A DNA stretch of 63,307 bases, the filler included, from Octopus bimaculoides (Eukaryota): the NCBI RefSeq assembly GCF_001194135.2. It is 3 parts of 3 records of this genome, joined end to end, with 100 filler letters (N's around TTAATTAATTAA, not from the genome) between each part and the next. Parts side by side here need not be neighbours in the genome. Positions count along the whole stretch, not along the records: positions 1 to 28,965 come from NC_068981.1; positions 29,066 to 47,562 come from NC_068982.1; positions 47,663 to 63,307 come from NC_069004.1. One strand, given 5' to 3'. Each line of letters starts with the position of its first letter. Within the stretch, counting starts at the first letter, position 1. The translations under genes and the position numbers were made by a program. Shown here in pieces: positions 10,159 through 63,170 of the stretch. The notes under the pieces are model-generated. The model was not told the DNA's origin and made no database searches. It was given only the letters and a program-made list of their open reading frames with translations.

Positions 10159-10640
10159 TCAAGAAAGTTAGGGGTTGTGAATCCAACCCACTAAGGGATA
10201 ATATCTATTCAATATACTGCTGGAAGAATACCCAATTATTATTACACTAGTGTTTTTTCATTGCATGGCAATTACATTACCAAGTGCAATAAATGGGTGC
10301 AGGTAAAAAGTCATTTTACCATTAATTTGTATAGCAATAAGAAAATGGAGGGGATTAACAGGTGGTATTCATGAACTTGCAGACATTGTATTGTGTCAAT
10401 TTATTTGTTTATTTGTTTACTAAAAGGTCAATAATAACAATATACAAACACATGTGGCATATTATGTCATATCAGTGATTATAAAAATGACATATAGTGA
10501 CAGAAAATGGGATAATATCTTACAGCTGTTTCAGTCTAGAGGTGACATGCCTCATTTTATCTTTATCATTCCAGTAGACTTTTTACATGGACTTTATCGT
10601 AACATTGCTGGTTAAGTCTCTCCATGAGATTTAGAAATGG
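10159..10640 (-). mobile_element. Hammerhead-tail element, copy A (non-coding, PLE pseudo-LTR/retrozyme-like)
   Basis: 10159-10505 is homologous to 30642-30985 (same strand) and 30234-30572 (opposite strand); minus-strand GAAACAGCTGTAAGA at 10518-10532; the 3' end abuts a TA/TG microsatellite. Confidence 0.7.
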
Positions 10641-10753
10641 ATCATTTCTAATCTATATATAGATATATTTTATTATATCCAATGTAGTGTACATATAATT
10701 GTGTGTGTGTGTGTGTATACATGTATATGTGTGTATAAGTGTGTGTGCGCGCA

Positions 10754-10789
<36 letters not shown>

Positions 10790-10872
10790 CACNNNNNNNN
10801 NNNNNNNNNNNNNNNNNNNNNNNNNNNNNNNNNNNNNNNNNNNNNNNNNNNNNNNNNNNNNNNNNNNNNNNN

Positions 10873-10928
<56 letters not shown>

Positions 10929-10934
10929 GTTTGC

Positions 10935-12259
10935 ACTGTGACTAAAGTGTGCATAAATACGTCTTCGACAGAATTCAGTAATTCATTGCACGTGTTTGAT
11001 GAATATAAGTGTAAAAAATGGCAAACACAGGCTTGCACAAAGAGATCTGGCCTGTTCTGCTTCAACAAGTGCTAAACGCCTCCTTTGCTTCCCATCATAA
11101 CATTTGCATTATCACAAGCGTGACCTATCAAATTTTCCAGTATTTTTATAAGTGTAAGAAAATCGTCGACTGTCTTTTGAATTTCAACGTCATAATATCT
11201 GGAAACCAGGACAAGTTGTTTTAGTGTTGAAACATCAGTTGTTTCATTAATAACGAGTGAGAATTTTGATGAATGGAGTTTTTTTTTAATAAAGCAATGA
11301 AGCCGTAGAGGCCAATGGCTTTAAGAAAGATGTATGTGCCTTTCGTTCGGGCACACTTTGCATCTTGGGTGATTTTAGAATCAGGGCAGGCGTTTGCAAC
11401 AAGGCCAGGTAAGTGGTCCAAAATAGAAATTGGGAGATTATGCTCAGCAACAAATGCACAGTATTTTAATTCAGCAGCTGCTACTTTCTTGGAATGTGAA
11501 GAAAACGATGAGGCCTCGAGATAATTGGTCAACTGTTTTGCTTTATTTGCATTCTTGCGGTGTTTTTCTGTCTGCTCATGTTAAATTTGGCTCAAACTAC
11601 CGGCAATTTCACACCTTGCATAATATGCATTTGCCTTTAGCTGTATCGCTCTTGCCTCGCTCCAACCAACTAGAAAATGTTTCATCGCACAAAGGTTTTT
11701 GCGGAAGTTTCCTTTCATACGATGCCCATCTAGCCTTCTTCTTATCTGGTGCTTCACGTTCGTTATCTGAGGAATATTCTGTTTTCAAATTTCTATCACT
11801 CATATCTTGCTCCAGTAATAGTTCTGTAAGATTTATTTGAATTAATCAAATTATTAAACACATTACATACCGTTTAAAATCCGAGTTAAGAAATCTTTGT
11901 TTGTGTTCAGACTGATACAACGAGATTGTATAAAAAAGCACTGTAAAATTGAGTCTAATTTATCAAACCTTTAAAAAAAAAAACATGTACCTTCAGTCTG
12001 TGAGAAAACTTCTTGTGCTATAACAGCTATGGCGTGGTAAACAGGACGTATATACATTCATTCAAAATTATGGACGCCCTTGACCTCATCAGTCAACGCG
12101 TGCGTGCATGCAGATGCGTTTGCGAAAGCAGACCGGACGTACTTTTATTTTTATTAAGCTCACAAACACGCATATGTGAAAAATCAATCAATCAATTTTG
12201 AAAAACCAATAGCAAGATCACTAAAACGTATAGCGTATTCGCCTGAACGTACAGCGCTG
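10935..12259 (-). mobile_element. hAT-superfamily DNA transposon remnant (BED finger plus partial DDE transposase)
   Basis: SWLERG...KGKCILCK (BED-like); AEHNLPISILDHL...PDSKI...KCARTKGT; frameshifted FSLIINETTDVST, GHACDNANVMMG and ACVCHFLHL (CxxH motif); candidate CAG terminus near 12259. Confidence 0.8.
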
Positions 12260-12276
12260 TTATATGTATGTGTGTG

Positions 12277-12318
<42 letters not shown>

Positions 12319-13207
12319 AAGGTCGATAGATAAATAAATATACATATGTACATAAATATAAATATATAAATCTACCTTTCTATAGATAGATAGATAGATA
12401 GACAATGTATGTATATATGTGTGTGTGTCTGTTTGTGTGTGTGTGTGTATGACAGTAACTTCGCAGTTTGAGCTTACTTGCCCTCATCAGATTGCTTTCT
12501 TGACATTATATAGTATTTGGCAAGTTGTTTTTCTTTTGTGCCGGGAGAGCTATGTGAATGATAATTAGGTGCAGTATAGATAGACTGGAGAAATAGTTGT
12601 GTACGGATAGTTGATTAAAGAGGATAAGTGGAAGGATGTGTTTGTAGGGCATGTGTAGATAGAAAGTTGTGGTAAGAATATTCATTTCGGTTTGATATGG
12701 AAATTTTGCTATTTGAGAGTTTTCCTTCCTCTCCATAATTTTCCTCATTTCGAATTCGATAAAAGGTACCGGTTAAGTTTTGGAGCGTTTTAATCGACTA
12801 AGCATCCCATAATTTCGTATCTTGGCCCTGTACTGGAAGCAGTTAGTGTTACTTTCGCGTCGCTTCGTATTGAAAGCGGCGAGCAGGAATAATAGTTAGA
12901 ATGCTTAAGGCTGAGTCCAAATCCCGCTGAATTTAAAATAAGGTATCATTCAAATACTGAGGCTGATGTAATCGACTTGCCTTTTACACAAAATGTGCTG
13001 GCCTTGTGCCAAAATTAGAAAACAATTATTACTGTCATATCGCCAATGATTGCTCCTTTCCATTTGCTTGTGCCCACTTGACAGCATTAAAACAAACCAA
13101 GAGAGCTTTCATTGTCAGTCAATGTGTTCTAATGTAATTGTAACAGAATGGTCTCTGGCCTAAGCAACATATACTGATATTTTAAATTTTTCCTTACTCT
13201 ATACATG

Positions 13208-13596
13208 GTGGAGGCGCAATGGCCCAGCGGTTAGGTCAGCGGACTCGCGGTCATAAGATCGCGGTTTCGATTCCCAGACCGGGCGTTGTGAGTGTTTATT
13301 GAGCGAAAACACCTAAAGCTCCACGAAGCTCCGGCAGGGGATGGTGGCGAACCCTGCTGTATTCTTTCACCACAACTTTCTCTCACTCTTCCTGTTTTCT
13401 GTTGTGCCTGTAATTCAAAGGGTCAGCCTTGTCACACTGTGTCACGCTGAATATTCCCGAGAACTACGTTAAGAGTAAACGTGTCTGTGCAGTGCTCAGC
13501 CACTTACACGTTAATTTCACGAGCAGGCTGTTCCGTTGATCGGATGAACTGGAACCCTCGACGTCGTAAGCGACGGAGTGCCAACAAACAAACAAA
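13208..13596 (+). mobile_element. tRNA-derived SINE, family 1 (about 390 bp), full length with 12-bp TSD
   Basis: A box TGGCCCAGCGG, B box GGTTTCGATTCCC, (CAAA)n tail; TSD ACTCTATACATG at 13196-13207 and 13597-13608; second copy at 27839-28226. Confidence 0.92.
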
Positions 13597-14124
13597 ACTC
13601 TATACATGATTTTAATATTAGTGTTGGGACGGTACTTTTACTCGTGCAAATTTTTATCGTGCATAATTCTAGTACTGATATTTGTGATGTATAGAGCAAG
13701 GCTCTAATGATCTTATAAACCCTCCCACGAACAAATAGCCCACACATCTCACGCATTTTACAATAGTTTAAGCAATTTTCTTCAATTTGAAGCGAACAGC
13801 TCCGGTTTTAATCTGGAGTTATTTGAACTGAGGTCAAACTGCTTGCAACTGGTTTTTTAATGATCTAGACCAGATTACTCGAAATCTCCATGATCTCGTC
13901 TGTGCTAAGTCCAATTTAATTTGTTGTTTACATCAATGTTCTCTGATTCATGATACATTTCTATACTGTGGAATATATATAGACCATTTTGATTCGATAA
14001 GAATATATATTTACACGATTTTGAAAGCATTTAAATTGTGAGAGAGACAACATATGAATGTTAAGATATTTATATATTTCTAAATGTGTCTTTTCTCTTC
14101 TCCGTTTCTCTCTGTCTCTCTTTG

Positions 14125-14160
<36 letters not shown>

Positions 14161-14180
14161 ATTCTCTCTGTCTCTCTCTG

Positions 14181-14214
<34 letters not shown>

Positions 14215-15239
14215 ACAAGCGTTCGCTCGCGCCTTATTACACACTTATAATCGTCTTACTTTCTTCATAATTTTGTGGCCACGTACCTATGTAAGAAATT
14301 AAAATCGTTAAATTATCGAACAAAACATGCTTTGCTTATTTCTTCCAGCTTTTACGTTCTGAATTTCTTTCAAATACGTCAATGCATCTTGTTTAGATGA
14401 TTTTAACTGGAATTTATAAAAATTCGTTTTTTTTTTAAATTTTATGAATATCATCTGAGTTACTGAATTAACACTATTTAAAGAAGAATTATAAACTTAT
14501 TTTATATTAGATTGGGAGTTTTGATACAGTTCAAACCAATTTATATTCCTTTAAAACTACTTTATTTGGTTTAATACGATAAGGTCGTAGGAAACCGGTA
14601 TGAAAAACATGGTAATGATTTGATCTCCTTCAGTGCAATTACCATAAGTTGAGTCAAATTTCAAGATTTCAAGATTATGTAACTGATTGGAATCGGATTG
14701 AAGAATATTTCCGGCTAATGTGAGTTTCATTACGATATTGACAAACTGCAGCTTTTTATCATATTTATAAAATGTCTCATTTCATAAAATAGAATGTTAT
14801 TAAACAAGCCACATGTATTATGCCGAATATTTCTAAAACGAATGAATTAATGCTATACGTAATTACCACCGTATGAACTTCGTTATAAATAAACAAAAAA
14901 CTAAATAAATATGGGAATTCTATGCTTCTTTTTCCTCGTAATTCCTTCATTTCAAATTCAAATTTTGTAATCCTGCCACCTGTTATATAGAAATGATTAT
15001 CTCCCTTAAAATAGCTGCCATTGCAAGGGAAACTTTGAGTACAAAGCTTAAAACATTACAACGAATTTGGTGTCGGTAGATAGAGCTTGGAGATTAATCC
15101 ACCAAAGCCGTCAGCTAGAAAACATATGTTCGATCACTATTGATGAGGCATTTTCGATCTTCATTTGAAAAACAATTATTTCCCAACAACAGGTAGTTTG
15201 AGAATTATGTTCATTAACGGATAATAGAAAAGTTTCATC

Positions 15240-15730
15240 TTTTAGTCGAACGGGAGTGGGGGCGGTGTTGTTCAGAAAAGGCCTGGATCTCGAGATACGG
15301 TCGGTCTTCTTGGACTCGAAAGGTAGGATAGTGGTCCTGGATGTGAATGATAGCGAAGGCAGTGCCTTTAGACTGGTCGCTGTGTACGCACCGACCGGAG
15401 CGGGACAGCCGGATTTCTTTAGACATTTGAATGTCTTTCTTCGGACGTCTCGCTCTTTAGTGTTAGTGGGCGACTGGAACGCCATCTTGGATTGGGTGGG
15501 GCTAGCCGACAGGAAAGTGGGATGCGCAAGCCTCGCAAACCTACTCAGTCGTTTCCAATTGGCTGACAGATTCAGACTGGATTTAGTGAATGCTCCAATG
15601 TGGACGTGGGCAAATATCGTTGGGTCATCCAGATCTTATCTAGACAGGGTATTTTGTAGGCCAGCAGATAGGGATAGCATAGGTTGTCCACAATTTTAAC
15701 TTGTCAGCTATACGGACCAAAAATATGTTT
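15240..15730 (+). mobile_element. Tx1/L1-clade AP endonuclease fragment (isolated)
   Basis: GAVLFRK, SKGRIVVL, VAVYAP, LVGDWNAILD, MWTW and SRSYLDRVF are APE motifs; GC-rich island in AT-rich surroundings. Confidence 0.85.
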
Positions 15731-16321: not shown

Positions 16322-16848
16322 AGGTGGCGAGCTGGCAGAAACGTTAGCACGCCGGGTAAAATGCTTAGCGGTATTTTGTCTGTCTTTTCTGTATTTCAAC
16401 TGCATAGTCAGTCCAGTCCGTTAAAGGAGCTTTCTGTGATACCCAGGAATATGCACACACACACACACACATGTATATATCTGTGTCTGTGTGCTTCTGT
16501 TTGAATTGTCTTTTAACGTTTATCATGGTTACATATTTTGCATAAACCAAGAAATGCATCTTTTCTGTATTTCAGCAATTTAGTATGACAAGATTCCTGC
16601 GTATTTTATCATCAGCCAATAAATAAATAAATAAATAAGGCAGCGAGCTGGCAGAAACGTTAGCACGCCGGGCGAAACGCTTCGTAGTGTTTCGTCTGTC
16701 TTTATGTTCTGAGTTCAAATTCCACCGATGTCGACTTTGCCTTTCGTCCTTTCAGGGTCGATAAATTTAGTACTAGTTGCGTACTGGAATCGATCTAATC
16801 GACTAACCCCTCCCCAAAATTTCGGACTTTGTGCCTAGAGTAGAAAAG
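16322..16848 (+). mobile_element. Chimeric SINE: family-2 head, about 250 bp of captured flank, then a full family-2 SINE, bounded by a 17-bp TSD
   Basis: TSD AATATTCTTCATTTATT at 16305-16321 and 16849-16865; 16385-16848 matches 4246-4820. Confidence 0.85.
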
Positions 16849-17420
16849 AATATTCTTCATTTATTTTCAGTTGAATTTCTTTCTAATCCGTCTTTTATTC
16901 CAATCAGCTCGAATAGCTATTGCAGCTTTAACCCGGCATAAACTGGAATTGGCTACACAACTGAATATCAGCAAAAGTCAAAGTTTTCGATTCCTTATTT
17001 ATATGCATATTCCGCATAAATGGTCACTTATGCATAACATATTAACATTAAGGATTTAAGCGTACCATTTATAAGATTATTATACACAAGTATACTTTGC
17101 ATATTCTATTAAGCATATTCGATTCCTATATGCTCAATTTGGATCTAATTTTACGCGTTTGTGAATTTAAAAGGGTTAAGTAACAGATATAGATAAACTT
17201 TACATACAAACTGGCAATTTAATTATTCCTGTCATTAACTAATTACTAATTAAGATGTGACAAGTATTTCGTTGATTATCAACAAAAGAAAAAGGAAGAT
17301 AACCTGAGTCACGTGCGCATCTACCTACACGCACACGCATAACACATTCACACACAGACACACATACACACATGCAAATGCAGAAAAGTACGCATATCTG
17401 AATATCTGTACATGTGTGCA

Positions 17421-17452
<32 letters not shown>

Positions 17453-17671: not shown

Positions 17672-18245
17672 CTTTCCGTATTCCCGAGCNNNNNNNNNNT
17701 ATATATATTTGCACGTATATATGTATATATATGTGTGTGTGTGTATAGCTGTTTGTATCTAACACTGCTTCGGTTGCGCATAGCAGATATATCTATGCAT
17801 GTGTGGGGGCTGGTGCGTGTGTATGTGTGTGTAACAGGAGCAGTATTAAATTCCCATAGCTATATAGCCATACAGACCCAGATCGTTTTTGTTTGGGATA
17901 ATTTTTTTTGTTCCTTTGCCGAATTCAAGCCAACGACTAACAACGTGAGAAGACGTTTTTTTGTTTAAGTGAAGGCACTTCTTGGGCTTTCTAATTATCT
18001 GAAGTGGTTTCTGTGCACAGATATATGTGTCCATGCATTTGTGTGTGCAAATATAGTTGTACACCTTAGTGAGTGTGCACGTCACTTGTTATACACATCT
18101 CTGTGTGTTTGCGCGCTTCATTACTGTCTTTGTGTGCCTGTGCGCATGTATTTCAAATGTTCATATGATTTTGTGCATATTTTTAACACAGAGACATTGC
18201 GTGGAGAATCCCTGGAATATTTAACAAATTTTCACTATCAAGTAT

Positions 18246-18660
18246 AGGCGCAGGAGTGGCTGTGTGGTAAGGAGCTAGCTTACCAACAACATGGTTCTGG
18301 GTTCAGTCCCACTGTGTGGCACTTTGGGCAAGTGTCTCCTACTATTTCCTCGGGCCGACCAAAGCCTTGTGAGTGGATTTGGTAGACGGAAACTGAAAGA
18401 AGTCCGTCGTATATATGTATATGCATATATATATATATGTGTGTGTTTTTTTGTGTGTCTTTGTTTGCCCCCCCCCCCCACATCGTTTGACAACTGATGC
18501 TGGTGTGTTTGCGTCCCCGTAACTTAGCGGTTCGGAAAATCTAACCGATGGAGTAAGTTCTAGGCTTCCAAAGAATAAGTCCTGGGGTCGATTTCCTCGA
18601 CTAAAGGCGGTGCTCCAGCATGGCCGCAGTCAAATGACTGAAACAAGTAAAAGAGTAAAG
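18246..18660 (+). mobile_element. tRNA-type SINE, family 3 (AGGCGCAGGAGTGGCTGTGTGGTAA head, internal microsatellite), full length
   Basis: A/B-box-like head, GGGCAAGTGTCT core, internal (TA)(TG) tract, AAAGAGTAAAG tail; many partial copies in the window. Confidence 0.9.
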
Positions 18661-19420: not shown

Positions 19421-19450
19421 ATGTATATACGTATGTATGTATGAATGTAT

Positions 19451-20032: not shown

Positions 20033-20066
<34 letters not shown>

Positions 20067-22844: not shown

Positions 22845-24960
22845 CAGTCTTATAACTGAGAGCCTTCTCCAATATGTGGTACTTGATGAAGAATGCTTGA
22901 ATGTAGCTACCCTCATTTGCACCTCTTGCCGTGAGGTAGGCTCATCTGGGACTCTCGACAAGAAGAGGTTCAGTCTCCATCAGTGTAGTTTTTAGGCGGG
23001 ACCTTTCGTTACTTTTGGGATATTGGTTGAGGTGATTTGCAACCTTCGTCCGTCGTCTCACGAGGATCTTCCTCTCCCTTGGAATCTTTTTCCTATTTTC
23101 TTTGGCTTTGTGCTCTGGGACATATTTCTGGCATATGGCTTGCATAACAGACATGAAATATTCTAGTTTCTTGCCAATGTCTGGTGTGGAGAGACATTTC
23201 GGCCAGTCCTGTCTGAGGATCTCTTTTTGAATCGATTTCCAGTCTGCTTTGTAGAAGTTTCGATTGGAGAGATTTCGGGTGCTTCTTTATGCTGTATGTC
23301 TCTGGCTACTTTCGGCCCAAACATAGACAGCTCTATTATGTTGTGATCTGAGACTGATGTCGGCGTCACTTTCACATCATGAACGATGTCCATGTTGTTC
23401 GTGAAGCAGAGATCCAAAATGCTATTCGCCCTAGTTGGTCTGAGTACAATTTGCTCCATCAATAGGGTATTGGTGAGGTTGAGCAGGGACGCCACCTGTG
23501 CTTGTTCGCAATGAGTCATTCCTGAGAGCATGAGGCCTTCGGGCCCTTTGACGTTGGGGAAGTTGAAATCACCCATAAGAAATACGTTCACGTGGTGTTC
23601 CAGTTTCAGAACTTCTTTAATCCTTGTGAGGCAATCTTCAAACCTGCCTATGTGTTTTGGGGCATCCGGTGAGCAATATGTATTGCATATGACTGTATTG
23701 TGCTTACTTTAGTATACAATTAGAGTATCACATATGAATATAAGTACGACAGTAAGACCTGGGGTATGATGTCATCATGGATGTATGCAGCAACTCTATC
23801 ATGGCTCCTTTCCCTTCTGTCTGTTCGCAGTATGGCATATTTTGGTACGTGTATTTCTGCATCCTCTATATCAGGGCTGAGGTGAGTTTCCACGAGTATT
23901 ATGCATAGGGCTTCATTGCATGCAGCAAGGTCTCTTAGGAAAGAAATCTTGCTTTTATTATGATGCAACAGGCCCCCAATATTTAGTAAAAATATTGGCG
24001 TTAGGGGAAGCCATCCAGTGGCTGTTGACTGTAGTGGTCTTGCGAAGTGGCGGGCAAGGTTCCTTGTTTGCGCTTGGTGTAGCCAGGTCAGCTGCTGCAC
24101 AATCTTTTGTGCCATGCACAAAAAAGGCTCTTGCTCAGCTGCTGCCTTGCGCATGACCTCTGAGGAGCGCACTTCTTTTGTATATTTTTTGTTTGGAGAC
24201 AGTTGTCTTTCGTCAGGGAAGTTTTTCTCCTTAAGGCCCCTGTAGTTTTGGTGGGGCATCGGGTGATTAAACCGGCAGTTTTTACCATTTTCCCCATGCC
24301 AGCATTTGCATTGCAGGTAAAATCTGCAGGTCCTTGAGTGCCATCCAAATTTCTTCTCTGTGGTTTTGGATTGCATTGGAACTTCCATGGGGTTTTCTGT
24401 TTTTTTGTTTGGTGGGTTAGAGTTTCGGTTTTATATTTTCCTTTTTCTTCCTCTCCTTCTTTATGTTTGTGTTCGTGTTCTGTCCTTCCTTTTCTTGTGG
24501 TGGGAATTTCTTTCCTCTGGTTGTCGAATGGGGTCAGGGCTCTGTTCCTTTGTAGGACCACTGGCACAGAAGGGATTCTGGTTGCTGCTTCCTTGGCTCC
24601 CCTATCCTTTTCTGCCTGGTCGTTCACAGGGGTGGGGGATCCATTCTTTTGAGGAACCACTGGATCAAAGAGACTTCTGGGTTTTGTTTCCTTATCTTTT
24701 TGTCTATATTTATCAGCCTTGCCAGAATAGTTTTCCATGATGACATCCAGGGTGTCAATGTGTGGTCTGATAAGCATATAGGATCGGATGAATTCATTTT
24801 TCTTCCGCTCTATCTGATCAATGGTTCTACAACGCCATTGTTTTTCTGTGCAGCAGTGATGATGTTGCTTGGCGGATCGCCGCTAGCAATCATCCATGCT
24901 CGCAACAGAAGATTCAATTCTTTCTTCTCCCACTTTGGTGCCATCTTCGTTTTCTAAGCC
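22845..24960 (-). mobile_element. CR1-like LINE, 5' portion (ORF1 with CCCH finger plus ORF2 AP endonuclease); RT absent
   Basis: ORF1 CRFYLQCKCWHGENGKNCRFNHP; APE motifs LNIGGL, LVETHL, RTDR, FLMGDFNFP, PTRANSILDLCFTN and SDHNII; frameshifted. Confidence 0.85.
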
Positions 24961-25742: not shown

Positions 25743-26165
25743 TATATTTATCTGGAGAATGGAGCAACAAATACAAGAAGAAGCAATTCTGTTGGGCTAG
25801 TTAGCCGATGTTTTATTATGTGGAAGTTATGTAATGAGTCATTGTGGAGGTTGAGGTTATATATGTATATATATATCAGAGGTGAACACAAATTTATATT
25901 AATGTTCCTACGACCGTTTCACCATCTGGTTGTTTGGAGCCCTGCGATAAATGTTCCAAATCCATATATAAATACTCAACCACAGCGGATCCTCAATGAA
26001 CACTTTATAGTATCAAGCTACAATTAAGGCTGAGACATAGCGATGCTGATAATAAGTTGTCAGAACTCAAAATTTATAAACTTTAGAATAAAGCGTCAAG
26101 CTTTATTAACAAAGGCATAATTAACAAATGCTACAAGAACGGAAGTCATGTATTCAATTTCATTA

Positions 26166-26290
26166 CCTTACAGCTGTTTCTGTTATGAGGAACAGTGACT
26201 TAGAGCTAAATGTCAGTGTAACATTCTATTGCTTCCACGGAGGCATTAAAATGGCTACGATACTACAGTACTCATCACTCTACAGGGAGC
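26166..26290 (-). ncRNA. Decayed hammerhead-like motif with long stem II insert
   Basis: Minus strand CTGTAGA-GTGATGAG...CTCATAAC-A-GAAAC-AGCT-GTA-AGG; stem II pairs 7 of 8; stem I is poor. Confidence 0.4.
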
Positions 26291-27838: not shown

Positions 27839-28226
27839 TGTTGTTGTTGGCACTCCGTCGCTTACGACGTCGAGGGTTCCAGTTGATCCGATCAACGGAA
27901 CAGCCTGCTCGTGAAATTAACGTGCAAGTGGCTGAGCACTCCACAGACACGTGTACCCTTAACGTAGTTCTCGGGGATATTCAGCGTGACACAGTGTGAC
28001 AAAGCAGACCCTTTGAATTACAGGCACAACAGAAACAGGAAATAAGAGTGAGAGAAAGTTGTGGTGAAAGAGTACAGCAGGGTTTGCCACCATCCCCTGC
28101 CAGAGCCTCGTGGAGCTTTGGGTGTTTTCGCTCAATAAACACTCACAACGCCCGGTCTGGGAAACAAAACCGCAATTCTATGACCACGAATCCGCTGCCC
28201 TAACCACTGGGCCATTGCGCCTCCAC
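27839..28226 (-). mobile_element. tRNA-derived SINE, family 1, full length with 13-bp TSD
   Basis: Reverse complement of the 13208-13596 family; TSD AAATAGAGTACAT at 27826-27838 and 28227-28239. Confidence 0.92.
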
Positions 28227-29065
28227 AAATAGAGTACATAATCAAGATCTTGACTTCAAGTCTACATGTTTACAGGACATGGCTAAATTAGAAGGTGGTT
28301 AACAAACTTGGTGAACCACCAAATTGTTGGAGCATTAATGTAAACTTTGATTCCATATAAGGTACATGGAAAAGTAACCATAATAGAACATATTTCAATA
28401 AAAACTATTGAAACATTAAGCAGTGTCAGAGTGCTACCAAAACGTATAGTGATTGTACCTATATACAAGTATGAGCACTGAGCTAGTTTTAAAATAATTT
28501 GGATACGGACAAAGAACAGCAGAGAACAGCATAGAAATAGCCCGGTACAAAATCTATTTGGCTGTCTACTCTCTCCAAATACGCGTCCATCGCTACGACA
28601 CACACATATATCGGGCTATGCTACTCAGTGAATAATTCTAATAGACCTTCGTTTTCTTTCTTCCGTAGTTTCTGGAGCCCATTCAGTCTAATGATGTCAA
28701 AAGGATTAAAGAAAGAGACTTGAATAGAAAGTTTACAAGTTGAAAGAAATACGATACACAAGCATATTATCTTCATGAGTATATAAATAAACGTATATAT
28801 ATATATGTATGGATATATACATATGTATTAAATGCACACGCACACACACACAAACACACTCACACATATATGTATACATATATATATATATATATTATTT
28901 ATATTATTATATGCATATGTATATATGTATAAACGTATATGTGCATGCGCGCATAAAGCTATATANNNNNNNNNNNNNNNNNNNNNNNNNNNNNNNNNNN
29001 NNNNNNNNNTTAATTAATTAANNNNNNNNNNNNNNNNNNNNNNNNNNNNNNNNNNNNNNNNNNNN

Positions 29066-29880: not shown

Positions 29881-29952
29881 AGCTATGCCATTTTAATACC
29901 GAGTGTGGCCGGGTTTCTCTGCTAGTATATATATATATATATATATATGTAC

Positions 29953-30572
29953 ATAGCAATAAGAAAATGGAGGAGAATATGCGGTATTCATCGACTTGCA
30001 GACAGTTGATCAATTTGTTTATTTTATAACTAAAATGACAAAAACCAAAATATACAGATATTTTTTATTTTTTATTTTTTAATTTTATATATCTATTGAA
30101 TTTTGTGAATCTCTGAAGAGGCCTAGCGAATCATGCATGTACCCCCATTACATCATTTCAATCTGCTAATTCGTCCGGCGCACAGGAGCTATAGAGATAG
30201 AATGGGGCATGCCAACGCTAGGCCGAAACAACTGTAAGTTTCTGTATATTCTCCAATTGCTAAATGTCCTTTATATTTGTAACCTTAATTGTTAATATGA
30301 CATGGTATGTCATAAGCATCTGTATATCGTGGTTTTTGTCATTTAATTATAAAATAAACAAATTAATCAACGGAAGTCGATGGATATCTCATATTCTCCT
30401 CCATTTTCTTATTGCTATATAAATTTAGGGTAAAATAACCCCCTTTTACCCGCACCCACTTATCGCACTTGGTATAACACTAGTGTAACAATAATTGGGT
30501 ACCCAGCAGTATATTGGATAGATACTATCTATCCCTTAGTGGGTTGAATCCTCAACCCCTAACTCTCTTGCA
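29953..30572 (+). mobile_element. Hammerhead-tail element, copy B, with 5' inverted partial copy
   Basis: Inverted arms 29953-30059 and 30318-30418; hammerhead at 30107-30242; tail ends at CCCCTAACTCTCTTGCA before (TA)n. Confidence 0.8.
30107..30242 (+). ncRNA. Type I hammerhead ribozyme with extended stem II
   Basis: GAATCT-CTGAAGA-GGCCTAGCG...CGCTAGGCC-GAAA-C-AACT-G-TA-AGTTTC: intact CUGANGA and GAAA core, perfect 9-bp stem II, 5 of 6 bp stem I, GUA cleavage triplet. Confidence 0.8.
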
Positions 30573-30641
30573 ATATATACATACATATATACATATATAT
30601 ATACATATATATATATAGATATAGATATATATATATATATC

Positions 30642-31190
30642 CAAGAAAGTTAGGGGTTGTGAATACAGCCCACTGAGGGATAATATCTATCCAATATACT
30701 GCTGGAAGAATACCCAATTATTATTACACTAGTGCTTTTCATTGCATGGCAATTACATTACCAAGTGCAATAAATAGGTGCGAGTAAAAAGTTATTTTAC
30801 CATTAATTTATATAGCAATAAGAAAATGGAGGGGATCGATAGGTGGTATTCATCAACTTGCAGACATAGTATTCTGTCAATTTACTTGTTTATTTCTTTA
30901 TTAAAAGGACAATAATAACAATATACAAGCACATTCGATTTATTAAGTTATATCAGTAATTATAAAAATGACATATAGTGACAGAATACAATATAGTCAT
31001 TATAAAATGACATATATTCACTATATGTCATTTTTATAATTACTGATATGATTTTATATGTCACATGTGTTTGTATATTGTTATTATTGTCCTTTTAGCA
31101 AACAAATAAACAAGTAAATTCACATAATACTATGTCTCTAAGTTGATGAATACCACCTATCAATCCCCTTCCATTTTCTTATTGCTATAT
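30642..31190 (-). mobile_element. Hammerhead-tail element, copy C (tail only) with inverted partial duplication
   Basis: 30642-30985 closely resembles 10159-10505; arms 30811-30981 and 31018-31190 form an inverted pair. Confidence 0.8.
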
Positions 31191-53328: not shown

Positions 53329-56104
53329 GAGACGAACCACCATTCCATAACTCAGTCAATGAAGAACCCCTCCAAAACCATGCTGTGAGACATATACCAT
53401 ACAAAATACTAATCTAAAATTTTAATGATATATAATGAACAGTCAGATTATTACAATCATACAATATATAAGAGCAAATACTTTTAATATCACAGTGAAT
53501 TCCATACAAAGAAACATTCATCATAAAAATATTAATCTAAAAATCAAATAAAGTATAAATTGAACAATAAAAATTAATACAATAATGTAATGTATAAAAG
53601 TAAGTACTTGTACACCTACTATGCTCGTTTCATGGCTGAATTAGGACTATATAAAATCATATAAGAAAACCATATCCAAGTTCATTAGAACGGAAAAATG
53701 ATTTTTTGTTATCCCTATGGGAGCACGAGATTCCTCTCAGGTTACAGACCTAGTAGGAATTTACTTATTAGCAGAACTCCAATTAGAAAATCTTAAATTG
53801 GAGGGTGGATTATATAGAGATGATCTGCTAATAATAAAAAATTGCACTAATAGAACATTAGAAATATATAAGAAGAAAATATATAGTTTTTTTTTAAAGG
53901 ATTACAATTTATAGCAAAAATAGCAATGTTAATTACTTAGGTGTAAATTTTAACTTAATAACAGGTATAACCCAACCTTACTATAAAATTAATGAAAACC
54001 TGAAATATATTAATGCTAAGACTAACCATCCACCTTCAATGAAGAAGGCGTTAGCAAATATTATAGGGAAAAGAATTTCATTACTTTCTTCCAACTATGA
54101 GATATTCAATAAACATGCACCATATTATAATGAAGCGCTTCATAAGGCGGGATATAATAATAATATTAAATTTTTCAACAATTCTAAATATAATTATAAT
54201 TTAAAAGATAATTTAAATGATGCATTCATCTTCTATAACAATAAACACAACATTAAGAATCATCTGAAGCCCGATCAGGTAGTAATATGAACAATAAACC
54301 TCATAGTAATAATAATAATGAGAATAAAATATGGCTAATAATTCCTGATGGGATACATGTTAAAACTAACATTATTAAAGATATTTTAAATATAATTAAG
54401 ACGTTTATTAAAGACAACAATAAATATAAGGACATATTTTCTACCAATAAATTTGGAGTTGGTTAAGTTTTACAATAATAAATTAAGTAACACCTCCAAT
54501 GAAGACCAGAATACAATTGATTGTAATTGTAGAGATAAGACTAAATGTAAATTTAATGATAAATGTAATGTTGAGGACGTAGTATATAAATGTATAGTGA
54601 TTTTGAATGATAATGATAATAGTAATAATGATAACATAAATACTACTTAGATAAGATCGACTTCCAATAAAATTAAATCATGGGTGGCCCAACATATGAA
54701 TTCTTTTAAGAACAGAAATTTAATGAATTCTATGGACCTTAGTAAATACATTTGGGAACTTAAATCTAAAAGAATAAAATACGATTTAAAATGCGAAATA
54801 GTTTGTAAGGCCAAATCGTATAGAATAGGGAGTAAATTTTGATTATAATGTACGAATGAATTTAAAGAGATATTATTAGCTAATAAAAAATTGATTAACT
54901 CCCAAGATGAACGTAATATTAAATGTAGACATAAATTAAATTATTTATATAATAAGTTTAGATAATGTATTTATTTATTTAAGCCCATGAAAAGTTACCA
55001 ATTTATGGTTATAATTAGTAGCGTTACATACATATAATTAGCTTTAGAATACACTTTAAACATTACATAATTATATAAAATTAGAATAAATAACTAACTT
55101 TTTACTAATAAAGAATTTAACAATAATATGTGCATTCTTTTACAATGTTTTATAGCATTACTTACGTAATACATAAATTTTGTACGTATTATAGTTATTA
55201 TTTTTTGTAGGTCTAAAGGTTTTAAGTATCTTAAATCTTCAATAAACAATATACTTTAGGTAAACTTTCGTTATTATTATAGTAAATGTAATACATATTT
55301 ATCTCTGGATAATGGACGCCATATTTACCACGTTACTTTTCAGTATAAATGCTAAAGTACACTTATTTCGGTTTAATTTGTAGTAATTTGCCAGCAAATA
55401 AGTCATGTTTTTAAAATTTATTCTAAACAATATCGACATACGTCCTTTATTAACTTTATACACTAACACGTATTTACATTTATTTACCTTTTCCATAATG
55501 AATTAATCTTGTTCACAATAATACTCTTTTTGAATATTTTTTAGCTTGTAACTTTTAATAATAATATTAATGTCTTTAATCTAGGGATTACATTACAGGA
55601 TTTGTTTCTTTATATATATTTTTTATTCCTTATTTTTATTCCTTATCATATTATGAGGTAAGTTAAACTTTTAGGTTTTAGGTTTTTTTTAGGAATTTGA
55701 CCTCAGCAGTGACTGCTTTCGGATTAAAATCATTTTCCGTTCTAATGAACTTGGATATGGTTTTCTTATATGATTTTATATAGTCCTGATTCAGCCATGA
55801 AATGTGCGTAGTCGATGTACAAATACTTACTTTTATACATTACATTATTGTATTAATTTTTATTGTTCAATTTATACTTTATTTGATTTTTAGATTAATA
55901 TTTTTATGATGAATGTTTCTTTGTATGGTATTCGCTGTGATATTAAAAGTATTTGCTCTTATATATTGTATGATTGTAATAACCTGACTGTTCAATATTA
56001 TATATTATTAAAATTTTAAATTAGTATTTTGTATGGTATATGTCTCACAGCATGGTTTTGGAGGGGTTCTTCATTGCCTGAGTTATGGAATGGTGGTTCG
56101 TCTC
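53329..56104 (+). mobile_element. Penelope-like element (Neptune-like RT plus GIY-YIG) bounded by about 380-bp inverted repeats
   Basis: IPMGARDSSQV, GLYRDDL, KRISLLSSN...FNKHAPYYNEAL, CNCRDKTKC...VVYKC, SKYIWELK and LCTNE; inverted arms 53329-53705 and 55726-56104. Confidence 0.88.
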
Positions 56105-56660
56105 GTGTTTCCCCTATGTATGTCATATTCAGGTCTTTACAAGCACCTTCCATGCATTTTATGCTGTAAACTACATTTCTATTTCTGCAGTTAATGCCAG
56201 GGCTAATCCTACATACCATGCAGTTATCATTGGTACATATGGTATTCTCAAAGGGGTACGTCCTACATAGTTGTGATCTGATGGAGTTCCCTGACTTTTC
56301 AACAATCTTAATGTTGAGTTTGGACTCCTTCAGAGCTTCTCTAAACCTACGCGCTAGTTCTCCATGGGCTGTGGCCTCTACAAACATCACTCCTTGATAT
56401 CTGTCGGTTTTATACCACGTGTTCGCCCTGTTGGGAAACATCTAGGAGCATTGCAGAACGACTAAACGAACATCTGAGACAATATGACGACAAAAAACAG
56501 TCCTCCATACTCTACCAACATGCCAAAGACCAGCATGGAGGCAACTTGGGTCAACTTGACATCCGCATCTTATCCAAGCACCCAAAAGACCCAACTCTAA
56601 GACAAATACGGGAGTACGTCCTTATAAATGAAACTTCCCCAATACTAAATAGGAAATATA
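56105..56660. mobile_element. Second Penelope-like element, GIY-YIG region with 5' inversion
   Basis: Minus 56441-56105 reads FVEAT...VVYSIKC...YIGET; plus 56434-56660 reads ETSRSIAERLNEH...LRQIRE...PILNRK. Confidence 0.85.
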
Positions 56661-57099
56661 CATAGATATCATACCCCCATACCCACATTTTACACAGGTA
56701 AAGTAGAATAGTTAATGGGCTTTTATGCAGATAGATGTATGTATGTCTGTGTGTGTGGGTGTGTGTGTGTGCATGCACATGTATGTATATGTAAACCANN
56801 NNNNNNNNNNNNNNNNNNNNNNNNNNNNNNNNNNNNNNNNNNNNNNNNNNNNNNNNNNNNNNNNNNNNNNNNNNNNNNNNNNNNNNNACCCATACATACA
56901 AACATGGTACATAACAGCAAAACACACACACACACTCAGACATGCACACACAAGGAGACAGAGGTACATAAATACATATACACACGTGCACACACATACA
57001 TAAAAAACACACAAACACAGGAATATGCAGAATACATACATACATACATGCAAACGCACACACATACATACATATATGCATACACACACATACATACAT

Positions 57100-57260: not shown

Positions 57261-57392
57261 ATACATATATACATATGCACACACAGAGAGACATACATAC
57301 ACACACATGCACACATACATGCATGCATACATACACACTGAGACACACATGTGCAAAAACAAACAAAAGCAAAAAAGAACGTAGCGTAAATA

Positions 57393-58036
57393 ATGGGAAG
57401 TAACCAAAGAGCATTTAAGGTACATAATGCTTTATGAGTACAAAAAAGGAAACTCTGCAGCCGAAGCGACTCAAGACATACACTCAGTTTATAGGAAAGC
57501 TTGTTTGAACGAAAGAACTTGCAGAAGATGGTTTGCAAAATTCAGAAGTGGAGATTTCAGCCTTGAAGATGAATATCGAACAGGACGTCCAGTTGAGTTT
57601 GATGATAAGCTCCTTGAGGCATTAATTGAAAAAAATCCTGCATTATCAGTTGAAGAATTGGCAATAAAGCTTAGTTCAAACCATACAACTGTTCATCATC
57701 ATCTTCAACAACTTGGAAAGGTTCCTAAACTTGGAAAATGGGTGCCTCATGTATTGTCCAAAAGTAACTGCAAATCCCGAGTTGACATCTGCTCTTCTCT
57801 CCAGTCTCGCAAACTCGTTTCATTCTTTTTAGATAGACTTGTGACTGGTGACGAAAAATGGATCTTCTATCGAAATGTTAAACGTCGTAAACAGTGGCTT
57901 GGTAAAAGGGGAGAAGCTCAACCACAACCGAGAAGGGAAATTCATGGAAAAAAGGTTCTTCTCTCTATCTGGTGGGATTGGAAAGGAGTAATTCACTTTG
58001 AATTGTTACCACGTAATGCAACCATCAATGCTCAAG

Positions 58037-58038
<2 letters not shown>
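57393..58038 (+). mobile_element. Mariner transposase fragment (second family), 3'-truncated
   Basis: MLYEYKKG, RRWFAKFRSGDFSLED..RTGRP, KWVPHVL, VTGDEKW and LLSIWWDWKG; stops at a (TA)n tract. Confidence 0.9.
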
Positions 58039-58073
<35 letters not shown>

Positions 58074-58099
58074 ATATATATATGTATGTAGAAACTCTA

Positions 58100-59591
58100 T
58101 ATCGATCTGTAGAAAAAGTGTAGGTAGAAACTCTATAAGATGTACCCAGTGCAAGCTATGGACACATAAGAGGTGCAGCAATATTTAAGGAAGGTTAACT
58201 AGGAAGTNNNNNNNNNNAAGCTATGGACACATAAGAGGTGCAGCAATATTTAAGGAAGGTTAACTAGGAAGTTAGTTTTTGTATGTGGCAGATGTTCAGG
58301 AGCAATAAACGCTGAAAATGTGCTGAAAACAACTTCTGTCACATTCCAAGGAGAAAAACTAGACGTAGTTGATAGCTTCCGCTATCTGGGTGACCAAGTT
58401 AGTAGTGGGGGAGGGTGCGCTGAAAGTGTAGCTGCTAGAATAAGAATAGCCTGGGCAAAGTTCAGAGAGCTCTTACCTCTGTTGGCGACAAAGGGCCTCT
58501 CACTCAGAGTAAAAGGCAGACTGTATGATGCAGCCATGCTACACGGCAGTGAAACACGGGCTGTGACTGCTGAGGACATGCGTAAGCTCACAAGGAACGA
58601 AGCCAGTATGCTCCGATGGATGAGTAATGTCAGTGTGCATACCCGACAGAGTGTAAGTATCTTGAGAGAAAAGTTGAACCTATGAAGCATCAGTTGTGGT
58701 GGGCAAGAGAGACAATTACGCTGGTATGGTTATGTGGTGAGAATGGATGAGGATAGCTGTGTGAAAAAATGCCACACCCTAGCGGTTGAGGGAATCTGTG
58801 GAAGAGGCAGGCTCAGGAAGACCTGTTATGAGGTGGTGAAGCACGACCTTCGAACATTAGGCCTCACCGAGACCTTTGGAAATATGTTGTGCATGAGAAG
58901 ACCCAGCAAGCCAAGTTAGACCAAAATCCAAGGCCTCTGCCAGGGATGTAGCCAGCTCACTTATGCGTAACATTCCTTCATTGGACACTAAACTCCACTT
59001 GTGAAGACCTGTTGAGACAAGTGAAATCGAAATCAAACTAAATTTGACGACTGGCACCCATGCCAACGTCTCTTTCATTGAACACTAAACTCGGCTTGCT
59101 AAGACCTATTGGGGCAAGCGAAAGCAAAATCGTGATGGCACCTGTACCAGTGGAGCACTAAGAGCTCCGTCCGAGTGTGATCGTTGCCAGAGCAGCTGTC
59201 TGGCTTCCATGCCAGTAGCATGTAAGTAGCACCATTTGAGCATGATTGTTACCAGTGTTGCCTTCCTGGCACTTGTGCTGGTGGCATGTGAAAAGACATT
59301 CGAGCGAGATCGTTACCAGTGCTGCTGGACTGGCTCCTGTGCAGGTGGCACATAAAATACAACATTTCGAGCGTGGCCATTGCCAGTACCACCTGACTGG
59401 CCTTCTTGCTGGTGGCACGTAAAAGCACCCACTACATTCTCAGAGTGGTTGGCGTTAGGAAGGGCATCCAGCTGTAGAAACTCTGCCAAATCAGATTGGA
59501 GCTTGGTGTAGCCATCTGGTTCACCAGTCCTCAGTCAAATCGTCCAACCCATGCTAGAATGGAAAACGGACGTTAAACTATGATGATGATG

Positions 59592-59592
<1 letters not shown>
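58100..59592 (+). mobile_element. RTE LINE, 5'-truncated, with PHD-like Cys/His insert, repeat-rich 3' UTR and (GAT)n tail
   Basis: IRCTQCKLWTHKRCS...CGRC, VDSFRYLGD, RIRIAWAKFRELLPLL, LHGSET, RWYGYVVRM and GRGRLRKT; ends CGTTAAACTATGATGATGAT. Confidence 0.9.
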
Positions 59593-59625
<33 letters not shown>

Positions 59626-61614
59626 ATATATATGTATATATATATATGTGTGTGTATATATATGTATATATATGAGTGTATATATATGTATATATATATA
59701 TGTGTGTATATATATATATGTATATATATGTAGATATGTATGTATATATGTATATGTATGTATATATATATATATGTATATGTNNNNNNNNNNTATATAT
59801 ATATGTATATATATGTAGATATGTATGTATATATGTATATGTATGTATATATATATATATGTATATGTATATCTGTATGTATATGTATGTATGTGTATAT
59901 ATGTATATATATATACACATATGCATGTATATGTATATATATATATATGCATATATATGTATGTACATGGTGGCAGCTGATTAAGGATATGTTCTATATG
60001 TGGCCTGTGTGTTTTTTGTACCTTGTTTATCATTTTGTCCATGTTTTTTTGCAACGTCATGTACCTAGAGATGCATCTATCTATACATGTAGATGAAGGT
60101 ATGTACATACATGTACATATATATGTACATATATATGCATATCCTCATATTTTATTTGTAGTACATATATATATATCTANNNNNNNNNNTATATATATAT
60201 ACATGTATATATATGCATGTATATATGGAGAAATTTTTGTAACTGTGGTAAAAAGAGAACGTTCTCATTAGGCTGTCAGTGTGTTAAGAAAGAAATATAG
60301 TTTACGGGTGTAAGGTTACATCATGTGAAATGTTGCACATTCATATTTGATCATGCTTGACAAATTTCTAAGAAAAAAACATTTAGCTTCATTTGAAGAT
60401 AGGCGAAAAATGCATAAAGGAAGCTTAAGTATGCCTATCTGGTCCTTAAATATAGAAACACTGATTTTAACATAGGACGGAAAGAATTGCATGGTTAAAC
60501 GTTACGTAATTATGGAAAAGTGATGAAATCAATGCATAGCAGAAATATTCCATAGTTTCATGTCTGAAACCAACTGCTCAGTCATAGGAAGGAGCAAGAA
60601 CTAAGATGTCTACACCTTTACAGATAACATTTTAAATATTTTCATAGAGAAGATTTTAATTCTATTGGCACTCGGTTTATATGGTAAGTGTCAATGATAT
60701 ATCTGGTGTGCTTATCTTAAGTTGTAATTAATATTTTCCATACCTTGAACTGTATAGTTGAAAATACCTGCAACACACATAGGACAAAAAACTACTCTTA
60801 AATTAAAAGTTGATTTGTAAAAAGAAATATTCACCTTGATCCCACAAAGTAAGTTCTACTTATTTAAATAGCCATGTCTTAATTTTATCTAAATTAGTGA
60901 CCAGTAGCTGTATGAAATATCTAAATTCACTAAGGCTAATTTTTTTTTTATAAAGTGACTTGATTAATTCTTGCCTGGAAATTCAAATCTAAAGTCATCA
61001 GAGGGTCAACATCATCGTAATCTTTATAGTTCTATCAGATTATCTAACCTTCCTCTCATACACCTTGCACTCAAAAAACTGTAGTCAATTTCCAAAAATA
61101 TATCACCTGTCAAAACTACATATACTGAGTTTGCTTCAATCCATTTCAGTGGATGGACCTTGAATAAAGGTACATAGACTAATCGCTAATTGACAGTAAC
61201 TGGATGCAGATGCAATTGCTAGATATCTATACAACAGAAACATGTGTTGGGCAAATTTAAATCAAATATGCTGTAATTGACTGGAGAAATGATTAAAAAA
61301 TTGTGTGTGCAGAGTCTCCATATTCATTGTTACTGTATTGGATATACACTCAGTTGAATATTCATTATCCAGAGAAGCGAACCCAGGATTTACCCATCAG
61401 ATAAGATACGGTGGGATTGCTTACCTCAAGTAATTCTAGCTGCTCATTTGAACTTGATACAGTTAGCCTTAATCTGGATTATAACTAAGTGCTTGAATGG
61501 TACCAGCCTGGATATAATACCCCTGTCTATTCACTATGTGTGTATGTGTTTGTGTGCATAAAGTACATGCACACATGTATATACACATACTGTGTATATA
61601 TTTGTTTATGTATG

Positions 61615-61649
<35 letters not shown>

Positions 61650-61666
61650 AATGTATGTATGTATAT

Positions 61667-62015
61667 ACTCTTTTACTTGTTTCAGCCATTTGACCCCAAA
61701 ACTTATTCTTTGTAAGCCTAGTACTAATTTTATCGGTCTCTTTTGCCGAACCGCTAAGTTATGGGGGACATAAACACACCAGCATCGGTTGTCAAGCCAT
61801 GTTGGGGGGGACAAACACAGACACACAAACACACACACACATATATATACATATATACGATGGGCTCCTTTCAGTTTCCATCTACCAAATCCACTCACAA
61901 GGCTTTAGTCAGCCTGAGGCTATAGTAGAAGACGCCCAAAGTGGCACACAGTGGAACTGAACCCGGAACCATGGTTGGTAAGCAAGCTACTTACCACACA
62001 ACCACTCCTGTGCCT
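61667..62015 (-). mobile_element. SINE family 3, full length
   Basis: Reverse complement of 18246-18660. Confidence 0.9.
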
Positions 62016-62025
62016 ATATATAAAC

Positions 62026-62064
<39 letters not shown>

Positions 62065-62718
62065 NNNNNNNNNNNNNNNNNNNNNNNNNNNNNNNNNNNN
62101 NNNNNNNNNNNNNNNNNNNNNNNNNNNNNNNNNNNNNNNNNNNNNNNNNNNNNNNNNNNNNNNNNNNNNNNNNNNNNNNNNNNNNNNNNNNNNNNNNNNN
62201 NNNNNNNNNNNNNNNNNNNNNNNNNNNNNNNNNNNNNNNNNNNNNNNNNNNNNNNNNNNNNNNNNNNNNNNNNNNNNNNNNNNNNNNNNNNNNNNNNNNN
62301 NNNNNNNNNNNNNNNNNNNNNNNNNNNNNNNNNNNNNNNNNNNNNNNNNNNNNNNNNNNNNNNNNNNNNNNNNNNNNNNNNNNNNNNNNNNNNNNNNNNN
62401 NNNNNNNNNNNNNNNNNNNNNNNNNNNNNNNNNNNNNNNNNNNNNNNNNNNNNNCTTCAGTCCGATATTCTGATAAATTTGAAAGTGTCTCTAAAAAAGG
62501 TATGCCGTTTAGAGAAAAATTTTTAGTTTAGAATCAGTAGTTCTTTGACTGCTATTTCTAAATTTTCAGTATGTTGGAGAAGCAACTCAATGCTAATCCC
62601 TGTATATTTATGATGATAAATGGTTTTACTGATAAAGGTTTTTTCATACTGAACTACTTGGCAAAATTGTTAATTATTAATTCTATTATTAATTGACGAT
62701 TCCCTGCCCTTATTCTTG

Positions 62719-62753
<35 letters not shown>

Positions 62754-62758
62754 TGTGG

Positions 62759-63165
62759 TAAGAAATGGAGCAATAAACAGTGAGAAGTGCATCATTGATG
62801 CTTTAAAGTCATTATTTAATTAAGGTGTGATTATGTTTACAGCTGTTTCAGTATATCAAGCTGGGGTAAATTTGCATTTACCTCATTGCAATTGATAGAC
62901 ATCATTGGAACGATTACAGTTGTAAACATACTCTCATCTTAATTAAATAATGACTTTAAAACACCAATGATCCACTTCTAACTGTTGTTATTGTTCCATT
63001 TCTTATCGTCTTTTTTATATATATCTTAAACCACGATTTTACCTTTAAATTTACCTACTACCGTATACATTACAACAAGGACCATACATACTGAGGTAAT
63101 ACCAGAAGTGCCTATGGATACATCTCTCCCTTAGATGGTTACATTACCTCTAACTTATATCTTAC

Positions 63166-63170
<5 letters not shown>
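62759..63170. mobile_element. Hammerhead-tail element, copy D (related family) with inverted arms
   Basis: Arms 62759-62846 and 62916-63005; tail continues to 63170 before (TA)n. Confidence 0.75.
62835..62911 (-). ncRNA. Decayed type I hammerhead-like motif
   Basis: GTT-CCAATGA-TGTCTATCAA...TTGATATACT-GAAAC-AGCT-GTA-AAC; stem I 3 of 3, stem II 8 of 10, inner GGTAAAT/ATTTACC hairpin; core has 2 substitutions. Confidence 0.55.

Follow-up and report, generated by a model that had tools for sequence, protein, structure and literature searches.

The 63,307-nucleotide stretch of Octopus bimaculoides DNA described here (the window) contains short repeats that combine traces of a hammerhead ribozyme with a tail ending, in most cases, beside a TA microsatellite. 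There are four copies, A, B, C and D, and a fragment, F, together called A-F. The best supported reading, to which we give a probability of about 70%, is that A-F are 5'-truncated 3' ends (pseudo-long terminal repeat, or pLTR, plus tail) of several TA-targeting families of Penelope-like elements (PLEs). It is better supported because the 5' ends vary from copy to copy, and because P, an element in the same window that bears an open reading frame (ORF), has the same end anatomy. The original prediction was of a non-autonomous, ribozyme-bearing retroelement system, and truncated PLE 3' ends were its own refuting case. That case has become the favoured one, and the system itself is the less probable alternative. 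Most likely, A-F are ordinary transposon debris of a described kind.

Head-to-head copies with one-sided tails

The AT-rich animal DNA of the window comprises 57.7 kb of called sequence, with 23 gaps and 297 TA tracts of at least 6 nt. The five predicted repeats are real and lie close to where they had been placed. A feature overlooked at first is that B, C and D are each a head-to-head pair, in which the main arm is joined by a second, inverted, 5'-truncated partial copy. Such a partner is present in three of the four copies whose 5' side is visible, and absent from A.

Copy A (10157..10651, minus strand) is a single arm with its inner end at about 10334, a tail at 10157-10333 and a perfect 9-bp hairpin at its 5' end (10631-10651). 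Copy B (29951..30573, plus strand) is an entire head-to-head insertion with TA tracts on both sides. Its inverted arm (29951..30059, minus strand) has no tail and ends in (TA)11. This arm is a partial copy of 30318-30427 in the main arm, 85% identical to it, and the matching segment runs from 29944 to 30059. The tail of B takes up the 150 nt from inner to outer end (30424..30573, plus strand), with a terminal stem-loop about 11 nt before its end.

Copy C is an imperfect palindrome of 390 nt. Its main arm (30641..30986, minus strand) has a 172-nt tail and a 5' end 16 nt downstream of the cut site predicted in A. Its inverted arm (31018..31186, plus strand) is tail-less and ends in (TA)9, and the junction between the arms (30987-31017) contains short palindromes. 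B and C were inserted tail to tail within one 68-nt TA tract (30573-30641), which amounts to a reused target.

In copy D, the inverted arm (62759..62906, minus strand) begins with a damaged hammerhead core, includes GAAACAGCTGTA (62838-62849) and reaches the inner end, after which comes TA. The main arm (62916..63168, plus strand) starts 8-9 nt before the predicted cut, has its inner end at about 63003 and a 165-nt tail, and is followed by (TA)15. Positions 62759-62846 are the inverted counterpart of 62916-63003. Fragment F (47663..47848, plus strand) consists of the D-family inner end and tail, followed by (CA)25 and then TA, its left side being lost to an assembly gap. A short TTAATTAATTAA island flanked by two 44-N runs occurs twice (29010-29021 and 47607-47618); the islands are probably assembly spacers, one of which cuts F.

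Each arm stops at one of two fixed points. Both inverted arms of the ABC family end at the identical base, after CTTATTGCTA, and TA follows. The main arms extend 150-177 nt past this inner end to a second, outer end. The tail so formed is found on the main arms of A, B, C, D and F, and is missing from all three inverted arms. Past the inner end, the main arms carry a short TA-like tract that belongs to the element: TATAAATT (B and C), TACAAATT (A), TATATATC (D) and TATATATATT (F). The outer end reads CTTG(C)AA or CTTACACA.

In A, B, C and D, folding predicts a stem-loop that closes 11-15 nt short of the outer end. Taken alone, this hairpin is significant only in B (z -6.7, the others ranging from -1.75 to +0.09 against shuffles). 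Its alignment has an unfavourable covariation term (+0.88) and a two-sided change in one of ten hairpin pairs, and its apparent conservation is suggestive only. All five tails (in B within 30234-30573) also carry CTAACT and pyrimidines directly before the outer end, in what is at the same time the 3' arm of the terminal hairpin. The tails hold no conserved ORF start.

The 5' ends are far less regular. Relative to the predicted cut, they lie at -130 in A, at about -176 in the main arm and +82 to +88 nt in the inverted arm of B, at +16 and +21 in C, and at -8 and -68 nt in D. Three of the seven are no more than 21 nt away from the cut (a crude uniform model, applied to ends that are not independent, gives p about 0.03). 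In A, C and P the 5' junction bears perfect short palindromes; D has none there. Inside the copies there is no direct repeat of the unit, either as a partial tandem or as a direct pLTR. A direct pLTR tandem is expected to be missing from short truncated copies.

By identity, A and C are closest (91%, 356 columns), followed by B and C (71%, 303 columns) and A and B (69%, 437 columns); D and F are 82% identical over 183 columns. D and F had been described as sharing a similar terminus with A, B and C. This relation is borne out as a weak likeness of the tails, and not by blastn, which gives zero matches between the two groups. In tail-to-tail local alignments, the scores of A with D (z 5.6) and B with D (z 5.1) are reached by none of 300 shuffles. 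The other pairs are weaker: the score of C with D is reached by 2 of 300 shuffles, that of B with F by 1, A with F by 12 and C with F by 29. By these comparisons, A/B/C and D/F are two families with a distant relationship.

A motif, GAAACARCTGTAAG, joins a further element to the group. Allowing at most one mismatch, it occurs four times in the window, against 0.05 expected. Three occurrences, in A, B and D, confirm the GAAACA(G/A)CTGTAA motif reported earlier. The fourth, overlooked at the time, is GAAACAGCTGTAAG (26167-26180) in element E (25748..26290, minus strand), a third family with a damaged upstream core and 421 nt between the motif and a TA-flanked end. Apart from this stem III motif, nothing in E can be aligned with A-D. 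The copies are non-coding, as had been claimed: a six-frame listing gives no credible stop-to-stop frame of at least 90 residues within A-D or F, and the few frames listed there run through microsatellites or N gaps.

Hammerheads and TA targets

A strict scan of both strands finds a single complete type I hammerhead in the window, in B (30107..30242, plus strand). This minimal hammerhead has its core, CTGAAGA, at 30113 and a perfect stem II of 9 bp; the distance between core and GAAA is 105 nt, stem I forms five of six pairs, and the cut is predicted after 30236. The region folds better than 200 of 200 shuffles (z -2.75). Elsewhere the ribozyme is damaged. On the minus strand in A, the core (about 10619-10626) has one insertion and one change, stem II is broken, and GAAACAGCTGTA stands at 10521-10532. 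In D the downstream half survives and the core, on the inverted arm, is damaged; the hammerhead of E is decayed. By the strict scan C and F have no hammerhead, and Rfam at gathering scores returns no match in the window. The ribozyme regions of A, E and P are no more stable than shuffles. In A, D and E, stem III is 2 bp long with a palindromic AGCU loop. The name "hammerhead-plus-tail" thus describes B in full, A and D in decayed form, and neither C nor F. A hammerhead origin of the repeats is supported.

Several other candidates were rejected. A UnaL2-type 3' element of long and short interspersed elements (LINEs and SINEs; RF00436) scores 21.1 bits against a threshold of 55 (E 0.2), its central stem-loop is unmatched, and its flanking words are not preserved in A or C. 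This match and another sub-threshold one, to Mu-gpT-DE, come from an Rfam search of part of B with E at most 10. In viral contigs, the long-loop hammerhead pattern gives three loci without stem I or II, taken as chance. Possible intron signals were also noted: in A, B and E, and not in D or P, GTAAG overlaps the site of the predicted cut, and in E (25748-26180, minus strand) the end is formed by a pyrimidine tract and CAG, preceded at about 45 nt by CTAAC. For PLEs, 5' introns close to the ribozyme have been described (PMC8557442, PMC4209133).

Published counterparts exist among metazoan PLEs in the form of minimal hammerheads (Cervera and De la Pena 2014, PMC4209133). They share with the octopus ribozymes a long helix II, a short loopless helix I, a weak palindromic helix III, a predominance of single or opposite-strand motifs and a high degree of decay. 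They are described as lying 100-700 bp apart on opposite strands, and single motifs as "probably related to truncated PLEs"; such minimal hammerheads cut poorly, probably as dimers (PMC4209133). The octopus ribozymes differ in a loop II of about 85-90 nt and in further predicted helices.

TA sequence adjoins 10 of 11 hand-picked ends of A-F, E and P, compared with 7 of 36 control ends (Fisher p 3e-5). The controls are blast-delimited ends of 18 other repeat copies, and the contrast is favoured by the fact that these termini are uncurated; at random positions outside repeats the figure is 1.6%. The outer ends alone adjoin TA in four of five cases (p 0.014), A having just 7 nt of it. The earlier claim that every visible 3' end abuts a TA-rich microsatellite holds for these four and fails for F, which adjoins (CA)25. 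A preference of A-F for TA is supported.

This preference has a precedent in the Hydra clade of PLEs, nearly all families of which insert in (TA)n, and one of which, Hydra-1_Obim, is catalogued from octopus (PMC8557442). Other likenesses to that clade are a type I hammerhead with a CTGA(A/T)GA core and, in many cases, a stem III of the form ACAG..CTGT-A and one additional position, unpaired or U-U, at the foot of stem II. Compared by eye, the ribozyme and 3' end of Hydra-1_Obim are unlike A-F.

A coding Penelope-like element in the window

Element P (53329..56104, plus strand) is a broken Hydra-type PLE. Its inverted arm (53329-53705) is 95.5% identical to 55726-56104 over about 380 nt. A 5'-truncated remnant of reverse transcriptase (RT), linker and GIY-YIG nuclease (53705-54959) begins exactly where this arm ends. 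The linker CNCRDKTKC, which precedes a broken GIY-YIG domain, fits CxCX5C, a mark of the Hydra clade (PMC8557442), and this linker is found in 9 of the 24 relatives that reach the nuclease. By its linker and relatives, P can be assigned to the Hydra clade; its C-terminal endonuclease is also CCHH-less, as in that clade.

Downstream of the coding part there is a decayed long-loop hammerhead candidate (55702-55810) with two core mismatches, five of five pairs in stem I, six of seven in stem II and a spacing of 90 nt. A relaxed long-loop scan of the whole window matches only B and the P 3' region, against 0.1 matches per shuffled window, with thresholds chosen after the P candidate had been seen. 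The inverted arm of P ends in TA and stops inside the ribozyme, 84 nt before the predicted cut. P thus shares its end anatomy with A-D, and so an ORF-bearing PLE in this genome leaves such ends.

The two best relatives of a PLE fragment in the window are proteins named as Octopus bimaculoides (52% identity) and Octopus sinensis (49%). Both P (54170-54330) and its two closest octopus-named relatives (P0001 and P0002) carry asparagine-rich low-complexity inserts after the RT thumb, such as are likewise described for rotifer Penelopes (PMC3846280). The public names of these relatives, DDB_G0282133-like and GATA zinc finger 14-like, mask their PLE origin.

A second PLE fragment (56103-56665) has a Cx4CxxC linker followed by YIGET...GIY-YIG, and presumably, by these motifs, it is Neptune- or Nematis-like. 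It is broken at "GET", with the upstream part inverted and joined to the inner end of P, and about 8 nt are common at the break. An inversion with a short shared break sequence is the pattern of twin-primed inversions. Look-alikes of the fragment in the atlas are unnamed eukaryotic clusters (0.92-0.94). Pfam finds nothing at cut-off in five frames, GIY-YIG reaching E 0.033 for 56345-56662. Word-indexed protein searches gave no matches for two PLE fragments and one unnamed 64-residue relative for a third.

Hydra-type relatives were also gathered from metagenomes, where 79 loci were fetched, from the best 80 of 108 confirmed among at least 597 pattern matches. In 14 of the 31 loci with at least 250 nt after the ORF end, a hammerhead follows the ORF by 71-351 nt, several of these loci being one family; in the other 17, the descriptor used finds none. 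Twelve of the 14 hammerheads start stem III with GAAACAG. Inverted self-matches of at least 50 nt occur in 9 of the 79 loci. Against these loci, the 3' regions of A-F, E and P give only 16-34-nt matches (E 0.007 or worse), and a 36-letter inner-end pattern has no match in metagenome contigs. In an index of sequencing runs, 20 of 24 listed runs contain part of copy B, with a best share of 0.49, across 4 organism codes and 8 studies and with no RNA run among those listed; these rows, which reads did not confirm, carry no weight here. Four of five short A-F or P motifs are missing from the supplement of PMC8557442, where line breaks could hide matches, and the fifth stands only in an unrelated Chlamys sequence. 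No description of these octopus families was found in the literature; Repbase and Dfam lay outside that search, so the families are not established as uncatalogued.

The window holds other repeats as well. At least four further interspersed families, SINE-like by size and several with TA-rich ends, have copies at 4449-4823, 16474-16852, 18243-18659, 47380-47545, 49299-49850, 59036-59591, 61692-62018, 13195-13587 and 27844-28236. Read by eye from translations, broken frames of LINE type (endonuclease/RT) and mariner-type transposase lie at 1681-3166, 15202-15699, 22942-24882, 48570-49294, 50107-51096, 57394-58188 and 58254-58685.

Competing explanations and a proposed mechanism

The inverted pLTR and the one-sided tail support the predicted link of the repeats to PLEs. 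Inverted truncated copies and one-sided tails are typical of PLEs (PMC8557442, PMC3846280, PMC8969392), and heavy 5' truncation is their norm (PMC8557442, PMC8969392). Truncated insertions of endonuclease-bearing PLEs (Arkhipova et al. 2013, PMC3846280; Craig et al. 2021, PMC8557442) resemble A-F in their 5' truncation, head-to-head inverted copy, one-arm tail, junction palindromes, AT-rich targets and hammerhead near the 3' end. They differ from A-F, which have no visible ORF and lie in TA tracts where target duplications are unreadable.

Several points weigh against truncated PLE ends. No A-F copy is joined to an ORF within the window. A tblastn search with 150 PLE proteins, all of Hydra type, matched only 53.7-55.0 kb, with no ORF remnant in or beside A-F. 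The tails of 150-177 nt compare with 30-40 nt in print (PMC8557442), and the 105 nt of B with a short loop II in Hydra hammerheads, published and metagenomic, where core and GAAA are 12-25 nt apart (14 of 14 in the metagenome set). In A-D, none of the seven visible 5' ends is more than about 180 nt away from the predicted cut, which is also what a short dedicated element would produce. Finally, the 3' region of P shows no alignment with A, B or E and a faint one with D, whose score 8 of 300 shuffles reach. The suggestion that the PLEs at 53-57 kb drive the repeats is likewise not supported, no sequence common to them and A-F being detectable. P is a model for A-F rather than their probable parent. 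What sets these repeats apart from Hydra relatives is the long loop and the long tail; Hydra-like and Neptune-like PLEs are the candidate parents.

A dedicated element is the explanation that survives next best, although it is unlikely. It would be a dispersed, non-autonomous PLE derivative of about 0.5 kb, from hammerhead to tail, with its own transcription and moved in trans by a PLE protein. None of the four copies with a visible 5' side reaches an ORF, their 5' ends cluster around the ribozyme, and the window holds three families with no matching coding copy in 63 kb. There is precedent too, in that pLTRs are enough for mobilisation in trans (PMC3846280) and non-autonomous Chlamys elements are known (PMC8557442). 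However, the 5' ends are scattered from -176 to +88 nt and not fixed, and heavy 5' truncation is in any case usual for PLEs. Moreover, the arm of ORF-bearing P also stops in its hammerhead, so clustering there needs no short template.

The non-LTR retrozymes (PMC7229834; preprint 10.64898/2026.07.22.740005) offer another comparison, as non-coding elements of a few hundred bases with a type I hammerhead and a proposed ancestry in PLE pLTRs. A-F could be monomeric offspring of such an element, replicated through circular RNA, the tandem master arrays lying at other places in the genome. In unit size and low GC they fall within the range of retrozymes, the 2-bp stem III with its AGCU loop in A, D and E would suit this origin, and monomer copies are frequent in retrozyme families (preprint 10.64898/2026.07.22.740005). 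Yet the definition of a retrozyme calls for head-to-tail units, each with its own hammerhead, whereas A-F are head-to-head pairs with a one-sided tail and one hammerhead per strand per element. The window has no tandem unit longer than 54 nt, no head-to-tail unit and no element with two same-strand hammerheads. Nothing downstream of the outer end returns to the unit start, and the ends are fixed at two points and not permuted. The earlier comparison with retrozymes did not hold in this window, and a retrozyme origin is very improbable.

Still less probable, and largely refuted, is a non-autonomous DNA element with an incidental hammerhead, either a miniature inverted-repeat transposable element or a Helitron/Helentron type with subterminal inverted repeats and a 3' hairpin. 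The inverted repeats, the stem-loop 11-15 nt before the 3' end and the AT-rich targets all recall such elements. Against this, the inverted arms are subterminal, of about 110, 170 and 90-150 nt and absent from A, so that there are no terminal inverted repeats of fixed length. The 3' end of a Helitron is a hairpin and then CTRR; here the hairpin is present but the ends read CTTG(C)AA or CTTACACA. The complete hammerhead of B, with its 9-bp stem II and 0 of 200 shuffles folding as well, argues against an incidental motif, and the same layout flanks the RT-GIY-YIG ORF in P. It is just as improbable that the inverted arms arose through misassembly or through later fold-back of DNA in microsatellite-rich sequence, as a short-read-type assembly with 23 gaps and arms ending in microsatellites might suggest, since paired arms are only about 85-92% alike (differing by about 8-15%), both ABC-family arms end at the same base, and the C arms resemble each other (90.5%) no more than they resemble A (88.6% and 90.4%), so that the arms are old, independent copies and not assembly duplicates.

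Truncated PLE ends can be combined with a model of how the head-to-head pairs form. The RT/GIY-YIG protein of the element would bind its own RNA and make cuts in both strands of a (TA)n tract. Reverse transcription would be primed at the outer end by one of the cut ends, and at the inner end by the other. Both cDNAs would mostly stop at or near the ribozyme, either by stalling at the long stem II or by run-off at a cleaved 5' end, and the two short cDNAs would then be joined head to head. The hammerhead would be inherited cargo of the parent pLTR, and would probably need a second copy or the protein to cut.

An example for this kind of priming is PAc, a Poseidon element of the green anole studied in vitro (PMC11167929, Frangieh et al. 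2024). There, two RT start sites near a stem-loop bound the tail, and the protein cuts and extends both strands of AT-rich DNA. The PAc start site is non-homologous to its target, whereas in A-F the inner end lies at a target-like TA tract, and the two ends are five times farther apart. We infer that the internal TA tract would pair with the target. For PLE inversions, self-priming on an antisense template has been proposed instead (PMC3846280); the present data do not separate this from priming by two cut ends.

A more specific possibility, rather doubtful, is a dispersed, non-tandem, non-coding PLE parasite of octopods. Its RNA would start where the hammerhead cleaves, and would pair with both cut (TA)n ends through two UA-rich priming sites separated by 150-180 nt. 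Head-to-head insertions would result, and their 5' ends would record cleavage in vivo. If true, such a parasite would mean that the PLE hammerhead has a visible role, and would take the priming rules past the non-homologous start seen in vitro.

As truncated PLE ends, the repeats are of use for the repeat annotation of cephalopod genomes, where stubs of this kind are dense: the window has six PLE-type ends per 57.7 kb of called sequence. They also concern the hammerhead of PLEs, the role of which has been called unclear (PMC8557442) and which is dispensable in vitro (PMC11167929). The 5' ends close to the predicted cut bear on this role, and specifically on whether cleaved RNA is the template in vivo.

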